Source: a virus | Lineage: Duplodnaviria; Caudoviricetes | DNA length: 64,000 nt | Direction: 5' to 3' (one strand) | IMG/VR virus record: IMGVR_UViG_3300049988_000245 | Coordinates: 64,001 to 128,000 of that record | In this document: positions 43,135 through 52,046 of the stretch, piece by piece | How positions within the stretch are numbered: position 1 is the first letter of the stretch | Layout of the letters: the number at the start of each line of letters is the position of its first letter | The notes under the pieces: model-generated | The model's input: the letters and a program-made list of their open reading frames with translations, nothing else | The model's database searches: none | What the model was told of the DNA's origin: nothing | Position numbers and translations under genes: made by a program

Positions 43135-44262
43135 TCAGAGCTTGAAATCCGAGAAAGTACCTGAATCCACGTCCTGCTTGGTCTGACCGATCGTGTATTG
43201 CGTGATCTCGGTCTCCTGCGGTGCCACCTGCACCTCAGCACCGGAAATCCACTTGGCCGTCCACGGGAGAGGATTAGCCTTCTGCGGGTAGATCGGCGAC
43301 AGGCCGACCGCGACCAGACGCTTGTTGGCGATCCATTCGACATAGTCGGACAGGAGCGCATAGTTGAGGCCGATCATGCTCCCGTCCTTGAACAGGTACT
43401 CGGCCCACTCCTTCTCCTGGGTGACCGCGTCGGAGAACAGCTTGGTGCATTCCTCCTTGGTCTCCTCGGCGATCTTGGCGAAGTCCGGATCGTCCTGTGG
43501 TAGAATCTTGATCAGCGTCTGGGTGGCGGCGAGGTGAAGATTCTCGTCGCGGCAGATCAGCTTGATGATCTTCGCGTTGCCTTCCATCCGCTTAACCTCG
43601 GCATACGCCCAGGAGCAGGCAAAGCTCACGTAGAACCGAACACCCTCAAGGATGTTCACGCTCATGATGGCCATCCACAGAGCCTTCTTAAGCTCGTATA
43701 GGTCCACCTTGACGGATTCGCCGTTGATCGTGTGCGTACCCTCGCCGAAGAGGTTGTACAGCCCCTCCAGGCGAATCAGGTTGTCATAGTGCTCGGAGAT
43801 GTCCTTGGCGCAATCGACGATCTCGCCGATGTCCATCATCTCATCGAACACCTGGGATGGATTCGGGTAGACGTTCCTGATGATGTGGGTGTACGACCGG
43901 CTGTGAATCGTCTCCGAGAACGCCCACGTGGTGATGAACGCCTCTAGCTCGGGGAGCGAGACGATCGGCAGGAACGCGATGTTGGGGGACCGACCCTGAA
44001 CGGAGTCCAGTAGAATCTGACGCTTCAGATTCGACGTGAAGATGTGCCGTTCGTGATCAGTGAGTTCCTTGAAGTCTTTTGCGTCCTTCATCACGTCAAC
44101 CTCCTGAGGTTGCCAGAAGAACGATAGTTGCTTCTCGGTTAGTTTGTCGAACTGACGATACTTCATCGTATCGAATCGCTGAACGGAGACGCCTCCATTG
44201 GGGTCCAAGAACGCAAGCGCCTGAGTATGGTCTTTACGAGAATTTGCATCAAATACGGACAT
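43135..44262 (-). CDS. nrdB: Ribonucleotide reductase class Ia beta subunit
   Basis: FFWQPQEVD, QILLDSVQGR, ETIHSRSYTH, LEGVRFYVSFACS, DENLH. Confidence 0.98.
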   Translation of the reverse strand: MSVFDANSRKDHTQALAFLDPNGGVSVQRFDTMKYRQFDKLTEKQLSFFWQPQEVDVMKDAKDFKELTDHERHIFTSNLKRQILLDSVQGRSPNIAFLPIVSLPELEAFITTWAFSETIHSRSYTHIIRNVYPNPSQVFDEMMDIGEIVDCAKDISEHYDNLIRLEGLYNLFGEGTHTINGESVKVDLYELKKALWMAIMSVNILEGVRFYVSFACSWAYAEVKRMEGNAKIIKLICRDENLHLAATQTLIKILPQDDPDFAKIAEETKEECTKLFSDAVTQEKEWAEYLFKDGSMIGLNYALLSDYVEWIANKRLVAVGLSPIYPQKANPLPWTAKWISGAEVQVAPQETEITQYTIGQTKQDVDSGTFSDFKL

Positions 44263-44887
44263 AAGTAACACTCCAATCTTTGCAGTTGCCGCGTTTGGCG
44301 GGATAATCTTGTTTCTTCGTCAAGCGATCTCGAAAGGCTTGATAAACTTTCGGCCACGCTACCTTAAATCTATGCTCGTTTTCTTGGCACCAAGATTTTA
44401 GGCAGTCGGACGCGAAAATCTCGCCCTCCGGTGACCGAATTTCAGAAGCTTTGCTGTTTGGATTGCTGCTTCCAGTCCGAGACACCCCATACATGCCATT
44501 GGCCTCGCCGTAGTGAGGACGGTGATTGGGATGAGTCTTCCCGTACATGCCATTCCGACACCCTGACACATCCCGTCCGTTGTTCCCTCCATATGCGCTG
44601 GGGCTTATGTTGTAGAAATCCGGACTTTTGGCTGCATCATAGGAATCAAGGTAGTGCTGCTCGCGCTCCTGAATTCGAGAATCATCAACGTATTCAAGAA
44701 TGATTCGTTCAAATGAATCTCTACCATATTTTATGTAGGCTCGGCGGAAGTGCTTACCTGATCCGACGTACGAGCTAGAATCTAAGCCAGAATGTCGGCC
44801 AATATACTTCTTACCGTCAAGCTTATTAGTCCAAAGATATATGAATCCCATGAACGGATGATACCAAAGGGTATCACCCGTTCTCAA
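44249..44887 (-). CDS. Free-standing GIY-YIG (Seg-like) homing endonuclease
   Basis: GFIYLWTN..GKKYIGRH; YVGSG; NUMOD3-like NGMYGKTH repeats. Confidence 0.9.
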   Translation of the reverse strand: MRTGDTLWYHPFMGFIYLWTNKLDGKKYIGRHSGLDSSSYVGSGKHFRRAYIKYGRDSFERIILEYVDDSRIQEREQHYLDSYDAAKSPDFYNISPSAYGGNNGRDVSGCRNGMYGKTHPNHRPHYGEANGMYGVSRTGSSNPNSKASEIRSPEGEIFASDCLKSWCQENEHRFKVAWPKVYQAFRDRLTKKQDYPAKRGNCKDWSVTYVRI

Positions 44888-44904: not shown

Positions 44905-45129
44905 TTAGAGGGTCTCGAACTCGAAGCGATTCTTGATCGACTCGTTGAGGAACTTGGTCTTGCTGTCCGCCGACTCGAAGTTGCTTGCCGTCGAAGCATC
45001 GACGTTGTTGTACCGGTAGGTCTTGCCGCCGATGAAGGCGACTTCGAGCGTCTGCGCGGACGAATCGTAGGCGATGCGGTCGATGTTACCGCTGTTGAAA
45101 TCCGTGCCATTGGTCTTGGTGAAGGACAT
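44905..45129 (-). CDS. KTSC domain protein
   Basis: SGNI..IAYD..QTLEV.F..G..YRY..V...F..ADS..KF.N..IK. Confidence 0.9.
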   Translation of the reverse strand: MSFTKTNGTDFNSGNIDRIAYDSSAQTLEVAFIGGKTYRYNNVDASTASNFESADSKTKFLNESIKNRFEFETL

Positions 45130-45244
45130 CTGAATCTCTCTCGTATAAGGATTCGACGAACAAATTTGGTTCGACGAAAATACCAATTGCATGGTTAACG
45201 GGTGTTTGGCAAGGTGGACGTACGAAAATCAGAAAGGTTCTAAT

Positions 45245-46096
45245 ATGCCGTTTAACCGTCGCGGGATTCTCGCTGGCCTCCTGGGAACGCCCCTGGGGAT
45301 CACCGCACTGAAGGCGATGCCGCTTCCGGCAGAGACCCAGAAGGCCATCGCGTTCACCCCCGAGGTGCAGAAGGCGGTCGAGAACATTCCCCCGCTCCCG
45401 ACCCCGAAACGCAATCTGCATCCGTTATTCGGATTCCAGACGATCGATGCCGAGCTTGGGTTCGCCTATACCCTGCGCAGCCGATACTCAGATGCGGTGA
45501 CCCTTGCGAATCCTGAGCCGCGCATCTCGATCCAGATTAACAAGGTGGTTGCTGGGGGTACATATTACCCGACGATGGACGCGGCCGAGGACGCGATCTT
45601 CAGTAAGTTCGCCATCACCCATCGCGAGGTGAGAAGCCCAGACAACCCCGAGCATACCAAGTTTCACCTCGTGCGGGCGGCGAACCGGATCGCCCAGACG
45701 ACCCGGCGCGGCATGGGTAACGTCATTCTCGTCCATCGGGATGACCTGCATCTACTCGATACCCCGTGGGTGGCCAACGTGATCCCCGAGCGAATCGGGC
45801 GGTGGTCGAACGTCGGGTTCACCCACAACCGAGTCTCCCAGGTCTGGGTCACCGACCGCCGTGTTCCTGCGATCCCGCACGGGAACGCGCTTGTGGGTTA
45901 TCGCGGATCGGAGTTAGACGCCCCTGCCGTTCTCACGTATCATCCGGGCTTTGGATACAGCTACGCGATGAACGAGAAGCCGGAAACCTACATGCACGTA
46001 GTCGGACTGACTGTGAAAGCCCGAGCGCCCCATACGGACGAGGCTATATGGGCGGAAGAGAAGCGGGGTGCCGTACGCCCCGTTCGCGCCGCATGA
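45245..46096 (+). CDS. Truncated major capsid (gp23-like) paralogue with twin-arginine leader
   Basis: FQT....GFAYTLRSRY, ISIQINKVV, AANRIAQTTRRGMGN, LVGYRGSELDA are gp23 motifs; N-terminus MPFNRRGILAGLLG. Confidence 0.8.
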   Translation: MPFNRRGILAGLLGTPLGITALKAMPLPAETQKAIAFTPEVQKAVENIPPLPTPKRNLHPLFGFQTIDAELGFAYTLRSRYSDAVTLANPEPRISIQINKVVAGGTYYPTMDAAEDAIFSKFAITHREVRSPDNPEHTKFHLVRAANRIAQTTRRGMGNVILVHRDDLHLLDTPWVANVIPERIGRWSNVGFTHNRVSQVWVTDRRVPAIPHGNALVGYRGSELDAPAVLTYHPGFGYSYAMNEKPETYMHVVGLTVKARAPHTDEAIWAEEKRGAVRPVRAA

Positions 46097-46287
46097 AGCG
46101 GCCTTCCTTAGAGAAGATCGCCCAGGCCCTTCCTCGCTCGCGTATCATGGCAGGCGAGTACACCTACCCGTACGCCGAGGGTGGGCCTCAGCGGCGGGTC
46201 TTCTACGCAGATGTGGGCACGCTTCCCCCGGAGGCGGCCAACCGATTCATCAAATCGCTCATGGAGAAGTACGATGGAACGTCGTAG
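46093..46287 (+). CDS. 64-aa portal (gp20)-fragment protein
   Basis: PQRRVFYADVGTLPPEAANRFIKSLMEKY matches gp20 PERRVFYIDVGN(L/M)P..KA..Y...M. Confidence 0.75.
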   Translation: MKRPSLEKIAQALPRSRIMAGEYTYPYAEGGPQRRVFYADVGTLPPEAANRFIKSLMEKYDGTS

Positions 46288-46810
46288 CCTTCTCGCGGCC
46301 GGTGCTGCCGCGATCACCGGTCTGTTCGGCGCCAAGTCGGCTCAGGCGGCGCCCTCGGGCGCTCTCACTCTGGACGAAGCCACGCGGATCGTCGTCGGCA
46401 ACGTTCGTAATCCGCCTGCCCCGGAGGAGATTCAGCGTCTCATCGCGGGGATCAATATGCAGGTAATGAACCGGCTTACCCAAGCTGGCATCGTTGACCC
46501 GCAATACGTAATGACGAGCGCCGTGGTTCGCTTCCGGGGGCAGGTGGTCGAGGCCAAGACACGTAGGCTCTCTTCGCGTTACACGTTCGGAGAGAATGTC
46601 CCGCCGATCGTGCAGGCCGAGGTCGAAGCCACGTTGGTCGAGAGCATCGTGCAGGAGATCACCGCAGAGTTGGTCCGGCCCGAGAACAAGGGTATCCAGT
46701 ATTGTCCATACGAGTTGGTCACCAGTTCCGGGGTCATCCTCGATCCGGAAACGCTCAACCCCACGATATTCTTTCTGACCCGTTTTGGGACCTTCGTGAA
46801 AGCCGCATAG
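46274..46810 (+). CDS. Mini gp23-like protein with Tat signal peptide
   Basis: VEAKTRRLSSRYTF, QEITAEL, YCPYELVTSSGVILDPETLNPTIFFLTRFG; leader MERRSLLAAGAAAITGLFGAKSAQA. Confidence 0.82.
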   Translation: MERRSLLAAGAAAITGLFGAKSAQAAPSGALTLDEATRIVVGNVRNPPAPEEIQRLIAGINMQVMNRLTQAGIVDPQYVMTSAVVRFRGQVVEAKTRRLSSRYTFGENVPPIVQAEVEATLVESIVQEITAELVRPENKGIQYCPYELVTSSGVILDPETLNPTIFFLTRFGTFVKAA

Positions 46811-46842
46811 AGTCCTGGCATCCGACCACACATGAGGAAGCG

Positions 46843-47250
46843 TTGGGCGTTCTCTTGAAGAATGCCCAACGCGACAAGCCGCGTTCGCGCATCGAACAGG
46901 TCGTTGAATGTATCAACCGGCGTGTTTTCGAAAATGTTCGGGAGATCATCAACCCACGTCTGGTCATGGTCGAGCGCGTCATGATGCTCGATTGGGCCGT
47001 CGAGGCTCGGACTCGGAATCTTCGGACACACATGGACTGCGCCGATTTTCGCCAGAGCGGCTACGTCCCCGAGATGATCGAGGCGGCCATTGACGGTATC
47101 ACGGGTGAAATTCTGGAGATGCAGGCCGGGACGAGTTTATCGTACTGTCCCTACGCGCTGGTGACCGGGCACGAGCAAATTGTCGATCCGACCACCTCTG
47201 GTGAATACGTCTATTTCCGTACCTGTTACGGATTGTACGAGCTACCTTAG
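46843..47250 (+). CDS. Mini gp23-like protein (third paralogue)
   Basis: VEARTRNL, YCPYALV..IVDPTT..VYFRTCYG; start uncertain (TTG after GAGGA). Confidence 0.7.
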   Translation: MGVLLKNAQRDKPRSRIEQVVECINRRVFENVREIINPRLVMVERVMMLDWAVEARTRNLRTHMDCADFRQSGYVPEMIEAAIDGITGEILEMQAGTSLSYCPYALVTGHEQIVDPTTSGEYVYFRTCYGLYELP

Positions 47251-47510: not shown

Positions 47511-47960
47511 TCAGCCCTCGATCTCGCCAACCTCGTAGTGATTCCCCACCTTACCACCATATTTGATTCGGAAGTGAAATGCATCGTTCGGATTCCCGAA
47601 AAAGAACACGTTGGTTAACGGGAGAACCTTGCCGTACTCGATTGGCATCTGGGATCGGAACAGGCTCACCCGCATGTGCCAGAGCGAAGATACGTTCTCG
47701 ATGATCCACTCGTGCATCTCGCGATCGTACGGATGCGCGTACAGCGTCACCATATGGGGGAACGTTTCTTCCACCCAGGCCCAATACTGCTTGTTATTGG
47801 ACGTGTTGAGTTCGTCCTTGGCGTGAACCCGTTTTGTTTCCGGGTCCATCACCGCCAGCGGATGGATATGGCCCTGGATGATGTAGAGACGGCGCAATAA
47901 CTTACGTCGTAAAATTCTTGTTATTCGAAATAATCTTGCTAGTAGCACGTTTACCCCCAT
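47511..47960 (-). CDS. FxLRW-family protein
   Basis: WIIENV...FFFGNPNDAFHFRIKYG; start uncertain. Confidence 0.65.
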   Translation of the reverse strand: MGVNVLLARLFRITRILRRKLLRRLYIIQGHIHPLAVMDPETKRVHAKDELNTSNNKQYWAWVEETFPHMVTLYAHPYDREMHEWIIENVSSLWHMRVSLFRSQMPIEYGKVLPLTNVFFFGNPNDAFHFRIKYGGKVGNHYEVGEIEG

Positions 47961-48160
47961 GACATTTTGAATTCCAGGGCTGTCGTATCGTTTTTGATCA
48001 AGACATTTCCACAAAGTGTAAGTTCCCAATCAAGAAATTCTATTCCTACGTGCTCTTTCAACCACGAGCGAATATTATATCGATCAATCTCAGATTCTGA
48101 AGTGAACATGTGTGGTAAGTCAACGTTGTGATTTGCAATTTTGTGATATCGAAACCTCAT
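47951..48160 (-). CDS. FxLRW-family small protein
   Basis: WLKEHVG...KNDTTALEFKMSWG. Confidence 0.8.
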   Translation of the reverse strand: MRFRYHKIANHNVDLPHMFTSESEIDRYNIRSWLKEHVGIEFLDWELTLCGNVLIKNDTTALEFKMSWG

Positions 48161-48414
48161 CCCCACCTCACGCGAAACGCCGTGGCATCGACATCTGTCG
48201 AGATGTCGATGGTCGTCATGTCGGCGCGCCAGCGGGGTACGACCGGCTTCACCCCGTAGGCGTAGTCGGGCGGGCCGAACTGCTCGCGGCACCAATGGAT
48301 CGCCTCGATCATGTTGGCGTTCGTGGTGAAATAGGTTGGGGAAACAATCATCTCGAAACCGAACGGGTATTTGGTTCCCTTCAGCCGATAAAGCGGTTTG
48401 AACTTGATCTCCAT
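48157..48414 (-). CDS. FxLRW-family small protein
   Basis: WCREQFG...STDVDATAFRVRWG. Confidence 0.8.
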   Translation of the reverse strand: MEIKFKPLYRLKGTKYPFGFEMIVSPTYFTTNANMIEAIHWCREQFGPPDYAYGVKPVVPRWRADMTTIDISTDVDATAFRVRWG

Positions 48415-48662
48415 CAGCACCACCGCATTTTGAAGGCGAGCGCATCGGGCTCATTTTGGAATACAATATGGAATCCGTTGCACCGGAACGCTTCGCTTTG
48501 GTATCCGATTTGATCCATGCACCAGCGTAAGGCGAGGTCGCGCGTCTCGTAGTAGCTATCTCCGTCGAAGACATGCTGTTTTAGAGAGAACTGATACGGG
48601 TAGGTTAGTTTCCGCCCTTTCCGGTCCTCGAATACAGTCGGCTCTTGAAACCAGTCCACCAT
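48414..48662 (-). CDS. FxLRW-family small protein
   Basis: YPYQF..WCMDQIG...FQNEPDALAFKMRWC. Confidence 0.8.
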   Translation of the reverse strand: MVDWFQEPTVFEDRKGRKLTYPYQFSLKQHVFDGDSYYETRDLALRWCMDQIGYQSEAFRCNGFHIVFQNEPDALAFKMRWC

Positions 48663-48928
48663 CAGCAGTACCTCAACTTGAATTCGAGCGCCTGTGGGAG
48701 GTCTCGCATATAAATGGTTCCACGGTGTCCGACGCGCCAATCCTTTCCGTGCGGGCCGACGTTCTCGACCAGCCATTCGGCGATGAAATCGGGTGTGTAA
48801 TCGGCACCGGCCCCAATATCAGGATTGGTGGTTTCAACGCAGCCCGTTCCGAACACCAGCCGATGATGGCGTGGTTGGAACATGTGCTCGTTCGCGTTCA
48901 CCACGTGATGGTATGAGATTCTGGTCAT
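48662..48928 (-). CDS. FxLRW-family small protein
   Basis: WLVENVG...MRDLPQALEFKLRYC. Confidence 0.8.
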   Translation of the reverse strand: MTRISYHHVVNANEHMFQPRHHRLVFGTGCVETTNPDIGAGADYTPDFIAEWLVENVGPHGKDWRVGHRGTIYMRDLPQALEFKLRYC

Positions 48929-49453: not shown

Positions 49454-51922
49454 TCAAATCCGGCAGGCGTCGCACTCTTCTTCGTCTGCGGAGATATTTT
49501 CGTCTTCGGCGACAGCTTCCTTCGCGTGAACGTCGATCTCACCGGCGGAATCATTGGTGTTGTTGTAGTAGAGTGTCTTACCGCCCCACTTGTAGTGCAG
49601 CATGATGTGCTTTAGCAGTTCTGACATCGGCACGCGATCGTCTTCGTAGAACTTCGGGTTATACGAGGTGTTAACCGAAATGGCCTGATCGATGTACTTC
49701 TGAAGAATCGCGCAAAGCTGAAGGTAGCCGAGCGGGCTCTTCTGGTCCCAGAGGAGTTCGTAGTTCTTCTTGAGCTTGCGAATCTCAGGAACGACCTGCT
49801 TGAGCACGCCGTGCTTGGACTGCTTCACCGAGACGTACGAGCGCGGCGCTTCGATTCCGTTGGTCGCGTTGGCGATCTGGGCGGAGGTCTCGGCGGGCAT
49901 CAGCGCCATCAGCGTGGCATTGCGGATTCCATACTTCTTCAGGTCGGCGCGGAGAGAATCCCAATCCAGGCGCTCTTCGTGGGCGATCAATTCGTCCACT
50001 TCGGCCTTGCGGGTGTCGATCGGGACGATGCCTCGATGATATTTTGTATTTTTGGAGAGTAGGCAAGCGCCCTTCTCCTTGGCAAGCTCCACCGACGCCT
50101 TAATCAAATAGTACGACCATGCCTCGGCGTACTGATCGACCAGGGCGATACCCGAGCCATCCGTGTACTTGACGCCGTTCTTCGCGAGGAAATACGCGAA
50201 GTTGATGATGCCGATACCGAGCGGACGGTACTCCTGGGTGTGCTTCTGAGCGGCCAGAACAGGGTATTCCTGATGGTCGAGCAGGTTGTCGAGGGCGCGG
50301 ACCGCAAGGCGGCAGATGCGCTCGAAATCGTGCGGCGACTTGATCACGCCCCAATTGATCGCGGAGAGCGTGCACAGGGCGATGCGGGACATGTCGTCCT
50401 CGCGCTCAACCTCGACCATGTTGGTCTTCGAGTACCAGGGCGTACCGGCCTCATCCAAACCGGATTCGGTTTTCACGGAGGAGCCGACCACATTGACGAT
50501 CGCGTTGTTCGCGCGAGCCGCTTCCATGAAGGTCACGAGTTCGGCCACCGGGATCGAGAGGCGCTGCGTCTGCACGGTACCCATCGGGGTCGTGGTGAGG
50601 GTAATCTCGCAGCAGAGGTTCGACATATGGACGGGCGCCACCTTCTCGTCGAACGACGAATGGGTGTTGGCGTTGTCCACGTTCATCAGGTAGATTCGGC
50701 CAGTGTCCTTGCGCTCGTTCACGAACGTGGTGAACAGTTCGAGGGCCTTGACCTTCTTCTTGCGCAGGCGGGTGTTGCGCTCGGCGGTCTCGTAAAGCTG
50801 CTTGAACTTGTCCTGATCGGCGAAGAACGCCTCGTACAGCCCAGGGACATCCGAAGGAGAGAACAGGGTGATCTCACCGCCAGTGATCAGTCGCTCATAG
50901 AAGAGCTTCGAGAACTGAACGCCGTAGTCCATGTGACGGACGCGGTTCTCTTCGACGCCCTTGTTGTTCTTCAGAACGAGGAGGCTTTCCACCTCAAGGT
51001 GCCAGATCGGGTAGTAGAGAGTCGCCGAGCCCTTGCGGACGCCGCCCTGGTTGCAGGAATTCACAGCCGACTGGAAATGCTTGAAGAACGGCGTCAGACC
51101 GGTGTGAGAGGCGTCACCGTTCCGGATGGGCGAGCCGAGCGCGCGGATCGAGCCCGCGCCGATGCCGATACCGGCACGCTGAGATACGTAGTCGATGACG
51201 GCGGCCGAGGTCGCGTTGATCGACTTCAGGGAGTCGCCGCACTCAATCAGGGTGCACGAGGAGTACTGACGCACAGCCGTACGCACGCCCGACATAATCG
51301 GCGTGGGGAGGGAGATTTCGTGCTTCGAGATGGACTCGTAGTAGTCCCGCACCCACTGGAGGCGGGTTTCCTTGGGGTATCGGGCGAACAGCACCGCCGC
51401 GACGAGGATGTAGAGAATCTGTGGGGTCTCAAGAATCTCGCCTGTGACGCGATTCTGGACTAGATACTTGCCGCGCATCTGCTCCATGGCGACGTAGGTC
51501 AGCGCCATGTCTCGCTCATGATTGACGAATCCGCCGATCTCGTCCCACTCGGACTCGGTGTAGTCGGTGAGCAGCGCGGGGTCGTAAAAACCCTTCTCGA
51601 CGTTCGTCTTGATCACGTCGAACAGGCGAAGCGCCTGAAAGCGGCCATGGACCTGCTTGCGCAGATGATAGTTGACCAGACGACCAGCAACGTACTGGTA
51701 GTTGGGGTGATCTTCGGAGATCAGGTCGGCCGCAGCCTTGATCAGAGTCTCTTGAATATCAGAGGTCTTCATACCATCGAAGAACTGAATCTGCGAACGC
51801 AGTTCGACTTCGGATGCGCTGACGCCGGACAAGCCCTCGGTCGCCCAGAAGACGACCTTGTGCAGCTTTTCCAGATTCAGGGGTTCTTTAGTGCCATCAC
51901 GCTTCGTGACGTTGATCTTCAT
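49454..51922 (-). CDS. nrdA: Ribonucleotide reductase class Ia alpha subunit (ATP cone)
   Basis: VTKRDG, LPTPIMSG, YSSCTL, NLCCE, ALCTL, LMPAETS, C-terminal CDAC. Confidence 0.98.
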   Translation of the reverse strand: MKINVTKRDGTKEPLNLEKLHKVVFWATEGLSGVSASEVELRSQIQFFDGMKTSDIQETLIKAAADLISEDHPNYQYVAGRLVNYHLRKQVHGRFQALRLFDVIKTNVEKGFYDPALLTDYTESEWDEIGGFVNHERDMALTYVAMEQMRGKYLVQNRVTGEILETPQILYILVAAVLFARYPKETRLQWVRDYYESISKHEISLPTPIMSGVRTAVRQYSSCTLIECGDSLKSINATSAAVIDYVSQRAGIGIGAGSIRALGSPIRNGDASHTGLTPFFKHFQSAVNSCNQGGVRKGSATLYYPIWHLEVESLLVLKNNKGVEENRVRHMDYGVQFSKLFYERLITGGEITLFSPSDVPGLYEAFFADQDKFKQLYETAERNTRLRKKKVKALELFTTFVNERKDTGRIYLMNVDNANTHSSFDEKVAPVHMSNLCCEITLTTTPMGTVQTQRLSIPVAELVTFMEAARANNAIVNVVGSSVKTESGLDEAGTPWYSKTNMVEVEREDDMSRIALCTLSAINWGVIKSPHDFERICRLAVRALDNLLDHQEYPVLAAQKHTQEYRPLGIGIINFAYFLAKNGVKYTDGSGIALVDQYAEAWSYYLIKASVELAKEKGACLLSKNTKYHRGIVPIDTRKAEVDELIAHEERLDWDSLRADLKKYGIRNATLMALMPAETSAQIANATNGIEAPRSYVSVKQSKHGVLKQVVPEIRKLKKNYELLWDQKSPLGYLQLCAILQKYIDQAISVNTSYNPKFYEDDRVPMSELLKHIMLHYKWGGKTLYYNNTNDSAGEIDVHAKEAVAEDENISADEEECDACRI

Positions 51923-52046
51923 ACCAATATCCATCTGTAAAATGCTCTCTCTAAATTTAAACGGGAGTTATTTACGCGAGTAAAAACCTGTTTAAAGTCA
52001 CAGAGAATAAAGAAAAATCTGAGATAAAATGAGAGAGCAAAGCCTA

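Follow-up and report, generated by a model that had tools for sequence, protein, structure and literature searches.

Candidate twin-arginine signal peptides on capsid- and portal-derived proteins of a jumbo-phage gene cassette

HK97-fold proteins are, to our knowledge, known only as builders of cytoplasmic shells, in the form of capsids, encapsulins and gene transfer agents. Encapsulins and the capsids of phage-inducible chromosomal island (PICI) satellites and gene transfer agents have reused the fold beyond the shell of a parent phage, and all of them assemble closed shells in the cytoplasm. Here we describe a cassette of four tightly coupled plus-strand open reading frames (ORFs; genes 1–4, Table 1) that sits between the minus-strand genes nrdB and nrdA in a 64,000-nucleotide stretch of jumbo-phage DNA (the window; positions 64001–128000 of the 265,895-bp IMG/VR record IMGVR_UViG_3300049988_000245, here G000). 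The cassette proteins likewise reuse the HK97 fold; in contrast to the systems above, they are devoid of the shell-forming elements and bear export-type leaders. The products of genes 1 and 3 begin with a leader built around an arginine pair (RR leader) that resembles the signal peptides of the twin-arginine translocation (Tat) pathway. We judge it reasonably probable that the cassette encodes an accessory, Tat-targeted envelope module made of capsid and portal paralogues.

The nearest described relatives of the gene 1 and gene 3 products are gp23 and gp24 of phage T4 (PF07068; PDB 7VRT, 1YUE), which belong to the same sequence family and share the HK97 fold; like gp24, both products are additional paralogues of the shell protein. 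They differ from gp23 and gp24 in being much shorter and in missing lattice-forming elements, because gene 1 has neither the E-loop nor the long spine helix and gene 3 has no A-domain. They also carry N-terminal RR leaders in place of the gp23 prodomain, and they lie among nrd genes, not head genes, with copies in only some relatives. Gene 2 is related to the T4 portal protein gp20 (PF07230; PDB 3JA7, 6UZC), of which gene 2 and its counterpart in the related locus L019 match residues 261–309, about 50 residues. Proteins of the gene 2 type hold only ∼30–50 of the more than 500 residues of gp20 and therefore cannot form a portal ring; the L019 copy, unlike gp20, bears an RR leader. Bacterial Tat substrates (PF10518, TIGR01409) have the same n-region with RR-x-hydrophobic-Leu, a moderate h-region, a basic c-region and an Ala-x-Ala-like site. 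They are set apart from the cassette proteins in that the latter miss the hidden Markov model (HMM) thresholds, are phage-encoded, and have a capsid- or portal-type cargo that is free of cofactor motifs; for the cassette proteins, export is a prediction.

The cassette is an undescribed combination of these known parts. A sequence-only reading of the window, which had drawn attention to the leaders, knew of no described example, and this has stood up to searching. Full-text literature searches returned no paper with a Tat or any other export leader on capsid-derived proteins, and none of 50,697 cultured-phage records proved to be a carrier in a tblastn search. In that search the gene 1 protein (P0003) had no match, and the gene 3 protein (P0001) and the homologues P0020 and P0012 matched bona fide capsid genes only, with one match per record.

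The gene 1 and gene 3 products begin with MPFNRRGILAGLLGTPLGITALKA (ORF at 45245) and MERRSLLAAGAAAITGLFGAKSAQA (ORF at 46274), exactly as the sequence-only reading had them, including the AQA site of the second. The core motifs read NRRGILA and ERRSLLA and correspond to the Tat core pattern, which is (S/T)-R-R-x-F-L-K-like. Each is followed by an uncharged h-region of 16 residues (mean Kyte-Doolittle hydropathy 1.69 and 1.68, respectively) and by a putative −3/−1 site, with AQA before Ala in gene 3 and LKA before Met in gene 1. Shine-Dalgarno-like purine runs precede both starts (GAAAGG and GGAGAA, respectively). An in-frame ATG lies upstream of gene 1 at 45191; its frame is not kept in the related locus L020, where the homologous ORF begins at the Met equivalent to 45245, and position 45245 is therefore the supported start.

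A set of 17 distinct leaders on four cargo types was compiled, including those of the L019 portal fragment and of two L019 capsid-like paralogues. The arginine pair is invariant (17/17) among homologues that are 25–40% identical. Position +3 is Ile, Leu, Phe or Val in 16/17 leaders, and Leu occupies position +4 in 16/17. No charged residue occurs in the h-regions, which are rich in Gly, Ala, Thr and Pro, span 16–27 residues and have a mean Kyte-Doolittle value of 1.3–1.9 where measured, and the likely −1 position holds a small residue, usually Ala. Across the 24 codons of the gene 1 leader, comparison with L020 gives nine synonymous and three conservative nonsynonymous changes (F3L, G11S and L12I). 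Leaders are kept in three close lineages: P0009, P0006, in which the gene 3 leader is retained (MQRRNLLTAGVAAFTGLFATKAIQA), and L014, whose 5′ contig end still reads ...LGTPLGIS, a part of the gene 1 h-region. Judged from their sequences, the leaders have the full anatomy of a Tat signal and are under purifying selection over deep divergence.

A heuristic scan of the whole 265,895-bp record for Tat-like N-termini returned 5 of 5581 ORF/start combinations (ORFs of at least 70 aa). Two of the five are the adjacent genes 1 and 3, and the other three are short ORFs of 80–116 aa. It is unlikely that the RR leaders arose by chance. This rarity bears on the view that duplicated head genes are decaying here and that their leaders are accidental, which we hold to be very improbable. 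Such decay would fit the unclear start of gene 4 and its overlap with gene 3, the loss from gene 2 of the leader that its L019 counterpart bears, and the variable content of the cassette. It is disfavoured by reading frames that are intact in every lineage, by the excess of synonymous over nonsynonymous changes in the leader, and by the confident structural models and the breadth of the protein family described below.

A phmmer search with the gene 1 protein against 1.84 billion representative proteins delineated a family of ∼30 representative clusters at 50% identity, mostly 180–350 aa long. Leaders are present in 13 of the 30 clusters (for example SRRTLLKGLALIPFIG..VRA, DRRKFLAGLFGAPAVATALTVPVQA and KRRSFLVGLAVTPVVAALPLPAQA). 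The other clusters have no leader and start exactly at an SPLF/HPLFG motif, which identifies the leader and its linker as an added module. On a maximum-likelihood tree, which is poorly resolved, the leader-bearing members cluster, requiring 5 changes compared with 11.7 for shuffled labels; the tree forces at least three gains or losses of the leader.

The arginine pair could in principle be no more than the usual positive charge of an n-region, in which case the leaders would be ordinary Sec signal peptides or uncleaved anchors, an alternative that we consider improbable. It draws on the sub-threshold scores of the curated Tat HMMs, on the shortness of the leaders (24–29 residues, the low end for Tat signals) and on the consensus Lys at +5, which occurs in one leader only (P0012). 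Set against it, the pair is never replaced by Lys in any of the 17 leaders, despite the low identity of the proteins that carry them, and the x-hydrophobic-Leu that follows matches the Tat core motif in 16/17. A moderately hydrophobic h-region rich in Gly, Ala, Thr and Pro, combined with a basic c-region, is a Tat-type feature that favours avoidance of Sec. The h-regions here are of that composition and hydropathy, and basic residues are frequent in the c-regions (Lys in both window leaders, Arg in several relatives). The first and third cassette proteins are predicted to bear genuine twin-arginine-type signal peptides. A signal-anchor-release (SAR) lysis protein was also considered; it would agree with h-regions rich in Gly, Ala and Thr, but was rejected because the cargo is of capsid fold and matched neither a lysozyme nor a holin family.

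Several observations count against a Tat-targeted envelope module. The Pfam TAT_signal (PF10518) and TIGR01409 models do not match the gene 1 or gene 3 protein, and the first 45 residues of each, searched alone against NCBIfam, match no Tat model. The homologue P0020 also stays below the Tat cut-offs, with 15.5 bits (cut-off 22.7) and 14.0 bits (cut-off 16.7). Short curated Tat models miss many true signals, so these misses lower the Tat call and do not exclude it. At −3/−1, gene 1 has L-K-A, a looser site than A-x-A. Neither TatA nor TatC is encoded in the record, none of the sequencing runs that contain the stretch is RNA, and no task for a capsid-like fold in the periplasm is indicated. Finally, many members of the family have no leader, among them each of the three encoded by the complete genome G003 (see below), which implies an export-independent role for the fold.

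The capsid origin of the cargoes, also claimed in the sequence-only reading, is borne out by both profile and fold comparisons. Pfam Gp23 (PF07068; cut-off 24.4 bits) matches the gene 1 protein with 26.0 bits and the gene 3 protein with 39.6 bits, each match being partial over the 376-position profile; that of the gene 3 protein falls into two pieces (profile positions 113–192 and 316–353). A profile of the gene 1 protein family aligns to T4 gp23 residues 347–455 (E-value 1.4e-10). Neither protein has the complete set of N-arm, E-loop, long spine helix and A-domain. That reading had spoken of HK97-fold fragments; a gp23-type origin holds for both proteins, and the word fragment does not fit gene 1, which has kept nearly the whole fold in trimmed form.

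Gene 1 was aligned to the capsid protein of Sinorhizobium phage Phosso and to a near-identical metagenomic one (P0007). It retains the GxQ...LRxRY motif of the N-arm, the SIQI strand and the A-domain core NRIAxxTRRGxGN, followed by a diverged C-terminus. The E-loop and the segment comprising a strand and the spine helix are missing, and a 9-residue helix stands at the place of the spine helix. The AlphaFold2 (AF2) model, built from a 31-sequence alignment, has a mean predicted local distance difference test score (pLDDT) of 81 and a predicted template modelling score (pTM) of 0.72. Its top Foldseek matches are T4 gp23/gp24 (E-value 6.7e-6, probability 1.0), followed by the HK97 capsid and encapsulins. 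According to this model, the 283-aa protein is a nearly whole, trimmed HK97 fold.

Gene 3 retains the segment that is missing from gene 1 (VVEAKTRRLSSRYTF and the spine helix) as well as the hairpin YCPY...DP...TRFG at the C-terminus; the entire A-domain is deleted. Its AF2 model has a pLDDT of 77.5. For residues 49–178 of the model, the top VIA-align match is T4 gp24 (Z-score 7.8, 125 residues, root-mean-square deviation 3.2), and nearly all of the best 50 chains are HK97-fold capsid or encapsulin proteins. A Foldseek search of the model against the PDB gave no significant whole-chain match, only local matches of 36–46 residues to T4 gp23. The modelled 178-aa protein is a P-domain with the spine helix and no A-domain. 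A feature search of the ESM Atlas returned only matches below 0.8, and a single complex prediction for the gene 1 (residues 55–283) and gene 3 (residues 27–178) proteins scored 0.01, which counts neither for nor against an interaction.

Gene 2 matches Pfam Portal_T4 (PF07230) with 23.9 bits (cut-off 22.9) over profile positions 204–233, ∼30 of 433 positions. Its L019 counterpart is 82 aa long, has the RR leader MNRRQILTGAVSVAGASAVSLGLGTAASA and gives the gp20 alignment noted above with an E-value of 9e-9; the portal fragment is also present in L020. With 64 residues, the gene 2 product does not comprise the wing, stem, clip and crown of a full, dodecamer-forming portal protein. By its profile match, it is a portal stem/clip-like peptide.

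The nature of these pieces would also fit a different use of the leaders. They may dock the proteins at the membrane or at TatBC, with the cargoes acting on the cytoplasmic side as head-protein mimics that bind capsid or portal subunits, an arrangement that we regard as rather unlikely. With the same reserve, the targets might be subunits of a rival phage or satellite, which would suffer dominant-negative interference with assembly or removal by Tat hitch-hiking. Equally doubtful is the variant in which the phage's own subunits are bound for a membrane-attached initiation of proheads, as with T4 gp20-gp40. T4 proheads initiate on the inner membrane. Docked mimicry would agree with the cargoes being pieces for subunit contacts in the head (the P-domain together with the spine helix, the full fold in trimmed form, and the portal stem/clip at gp20 261–309) and with the co-occurrence of capsid and portal pieces in one cassette; leaderless paralogues are also common, which speaks for a cytoplasmic activity of the fold. 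However, a pattern fit for signal peptidase, with a small −1 residue that is usually Ala, follows almost every leader and would be needless for a cytoplasmic tether. Furthermore, with the arginine pair on the N-side, the positive-inside rule would place the cargo outside.

The closest named relatives of the record are Sinorhizobium phage Phosso (469 kb) and Xanthomonas phage XacN1 (385 kb), both jumbo phages, and the source phage is a jumbo phage of ∼460–520 kb in the Phosso/XacN1 group. The same DNA is contained in leaf and silage metagenomes of several studies, and the cassette is for this reason not an assembly artefact. It adjoins nrdB in the related loci L014, L015, L019 and L020, and the nrdB/KTSC position is conserved; the KTSC gene likewise borders the cassette in L015 and L020. 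The content of the cassette varies. L014 has genes 1 and 3 only, without genes 2 and 4; in L020 gene 3 is missing, and a gene 4-like ORF accompanies genes 1 and 2. In L019 there are six genes, five of which encode RR leaders (proteins of 333, 285, 82 (the portal piece), 199 and 247 aa); the sixth, a gene 4-like ORF of 150 aa, is leaderless and, as in the window, comes after a leader-bearing gene. The homologue P0020 stands alone in a separate jumbo-phage contig. Searches for related loci found none with the gene 3 protein or alignment A5 in IMG/VR and none with A5 in JGI metagenomes.

The record contains no full-length Gp23 or Portal_T4 match, only fragments. Taken with the complementarity of genes 1 and 3, of which the latter keeps the strand-plus-spine-helix segment absent from the former, this could mean that the pieces together are the real, split major capsid protein and that the leaders are assembly propeptides, which we think most improbable. 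The record is only 57% complete (CheckV), and both of its ends (1 and 265,895) map at the ORF level to the complete 524-kb genome G002, at 100.8 and 143.2 kb, facing each other. The 42-kb G002 interval between these points holds the portal gene (112.3–113.7 kb) and the capsid gene (∼117.4–118.6 kb). The assembly gap is therefore the most likely location of the real head genes, and it also accounts for the finding that none of the neighbours of the Phosso capsid gene is present in the 265,895-bp record. The assembly seems to be broken around the head-gene region.

In G003, a complete IMG/VR genome of 543 kb, the capsid gene is normal, and three short paralogues without leaders lie in tandem at a distance of 130 kb from it, showing that the capsid-paralogue family also exists without export leaders. 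These paralogues (254, 298 and 260 aa; L113:8969–11408, or G003 336,968–339,407) adjoin a GIY-YIG gene, thymidylate synthase and dihydrofolate reductase (DHFR), a region of nucleotide metabolism. The complete genomes G002, G004 and G005 have the capsid gene only and no short paralogues. The presence of a full capsid gene beside short paralogues in G003, the mapping of the record ends around the G002 head genes and the different cassette subsets of L014 and L020 disfavour a split functional capsid gene, and the cassette proteins do not appear as a sole shell protein. In addition, the E-loop is absent from all of the pieces, and the cassette lies among early-type nucleotide-metabolism genes. As far as the gene content of these genomes tells, the four-gene cassette is accessory and does not represent virion head genes.

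For an accessory, Tat-targeted envelope module, the course of events might be as follows. The cassette proteins would fold in the cytoplasm, possibly with leaderless members as hitch-hikers; compact, fast-folding domains of capsid type would suit Tat cargo. The Tat translocase of the host would recognise the RR-x-hydrophobic-Leu motif and move the cargoes across the inner membrane or lodge them in it, and signal peptidase would cleave behind the small residue at −1, which in gene 3 ends the AQA site. We infer Tat dependence, cleavage and an envelope location from the sequences of the proteins. Hitch-hiker export through Tat is reported for E. coli PaoABC (PMC4273604). As in hitch-hiker complexes of this kind, leaderless genes adjoin leader-bearing ones in the cassette.

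If the proteins do reach the envelope, they might form a device for phage-phage competition or superinfection exclusion, or one for capturing head proteins; this is a guess, to which we give the smaller share of belief. The sequence-only reading had named superinfection exclusion and envelope signalling as examples of a use, and both are likewise conjectural. Phage exclusion proteins located in the envelope include T4 Imm and Sp and the lipoprotein Llp of T5, which have Sec or lipoprotein signals. The analogy would be functional only, concerning small, envelope-bound accessory proteins made outside the structural modules, and the cassette proteins have no sequence or fold relation to them. More speculatively still in its detail, and with a similarly modest chance of being right, jumbo phages may build a Tat-exported or Tat-docked hetero-complex from the contact surfaces of their own capsid and portal, which would be a new class of envelope device. 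Such a complex could serve to recognise rival phages by their head proteins or virion parts, or it could capture capsid subunits and take them out of the cytoplasm as Tat hitch-hikers. If this were true, it would be the first case of an HK97-fold protein working outside the cytoplasm.

The genes of the cassette and its surroundings are listed in Table 1.

Table 1. Coordinates of the cassette genes, their leaders and the flanking genes, in window positions.
Feature	Coordinates	Strand	Remarks
nrdB (ribonucleotide reductase small subunit)	43135..44271	-	Syntenic homologues carry PF00268; context marker of the cassette
GIY-YIG homing-endonuclease-like gene	44249..44887	-	Pfam GIY-YIG, 27.7 bits
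KTSC-domain gene	44905..45192	-	Divergent neighbour of the cassette; Pfam KTSC, 66.9 bits
Gene 1 (P0003, 283 aa)	45245..46096	+	RR leader, linker, trimmed gp23-type HK97 fold (predicted)
Gene 1 leader	45245..45316	+	Codons 1–24; followed by a Pro-rich linker of ∼35 aa
Gene 2 (P0004, 64 aa)	46093..46287	+	Portal-derived fragment, leaderless in the window; ATGA overlap with gene 1
Gene 3 (P0001, 178 aa)	46274..46810	+	RR leader, two helices, HK97 P-domain (predicted)
Gene 3 leader	46274..46348	+	Codons 1–25; ends in AQA
Gene 4 (P0002)	46702..47250	+	Leaderless paralogue of gene 3; alignments A3/A6
nrdA (ribonucleotide reductase large subunit)	49454..51934	-	Syntenic homologues: PF02867/PF00317/ATP-cone; far flank of the variable region that holds the cassette

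The start of gene 4 is uncertain and may be the TTG at 46702 (182 aa) or the TTG at 46843 (135 aa). Public gene calls place it at 46843. The N-terminus of P0041 in L020 is a homologue of the upstream frame (PHDILSDPFW..IESW), and the TTG at 46702 is probably the start. A gene 4 that starts there shares 109 nt with the 3′ end of gene 3, read in a different frame. Within this overlap (46702–46810), the C-terminal hairpin of the capsid is retained in the gene 3 frame, and the other frame matches the N-terminus of P0041; both frames look conserved in the sequences compared.

The 52-bp spacer upstream of gene 1 (45193–45244; ..GGTTAAC.GGT.TTTGGCAAGGTGG..) is kept in L020 and L015. Neither a scan for sigma-70 promoters nor a search for repeats in the spacer gave anything convincing; the spacer may be a phage-specific promoter or operator. 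On the other side of the KTSC gene, a GIY-YIG/SegE-like gene separates it from nrdB in the window, and in L015 and L020 nrdB is directly beside KTSC. Because it is absent at the same place in these relatives, the GIY-YIG/SegE-like gene looks like a recent mobile insertion.

The space from the cassette to nrdA is occupied by a multi-copy family of small proteins (88–172 aa; minus strand, 47511–48928), with a further member at L009:1913–2209. They share the C-terminal motif A-x-x-F-K/R-hydrophobic-R/K-aromatic (ALEFKMSWG, AFRVRWG, ALAFKMRWC, ALEFKLRYC and AIAFKMRFL), and no Pfam match was found for the members at 47511–48928 or in L009. Outside the window, an ORF of 153 aa (L009:1486–1947, or G000 175,996–176,457) combines a copy of the capsid N-arm with a C-terminal domain ending ..AFGFKVRWM. 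The ORF has no RR leader; its N-arm copy aligns to T4 gp23 residues 89–135 (E-value 1.2e-5) and matches Pfam Gp23 with 46.9 bits. The matched region of gp23 includes the Gol peptide, the trigger of the Lit defence, and it is conceivable that the 153-aa ORF acts as a decoy.

A selectively kept family with export-type leaders on the HK97 fold and on a portal piece would put the commonest virus fold to a new use, and it would add a new class to the accessory proteins with which phages act at the host envelope. If the proteins act on head assembly instead, they would be natural inhibitors directed at the capsid or the portal. With four small genes and two leaders, the cassette offers a concrete and easily testable case. 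The family is, moreover, a marker of a variable accessory island that lies between nrd genes in jumbo phages from soil and leaves and that may house further genes for interaction with the host.

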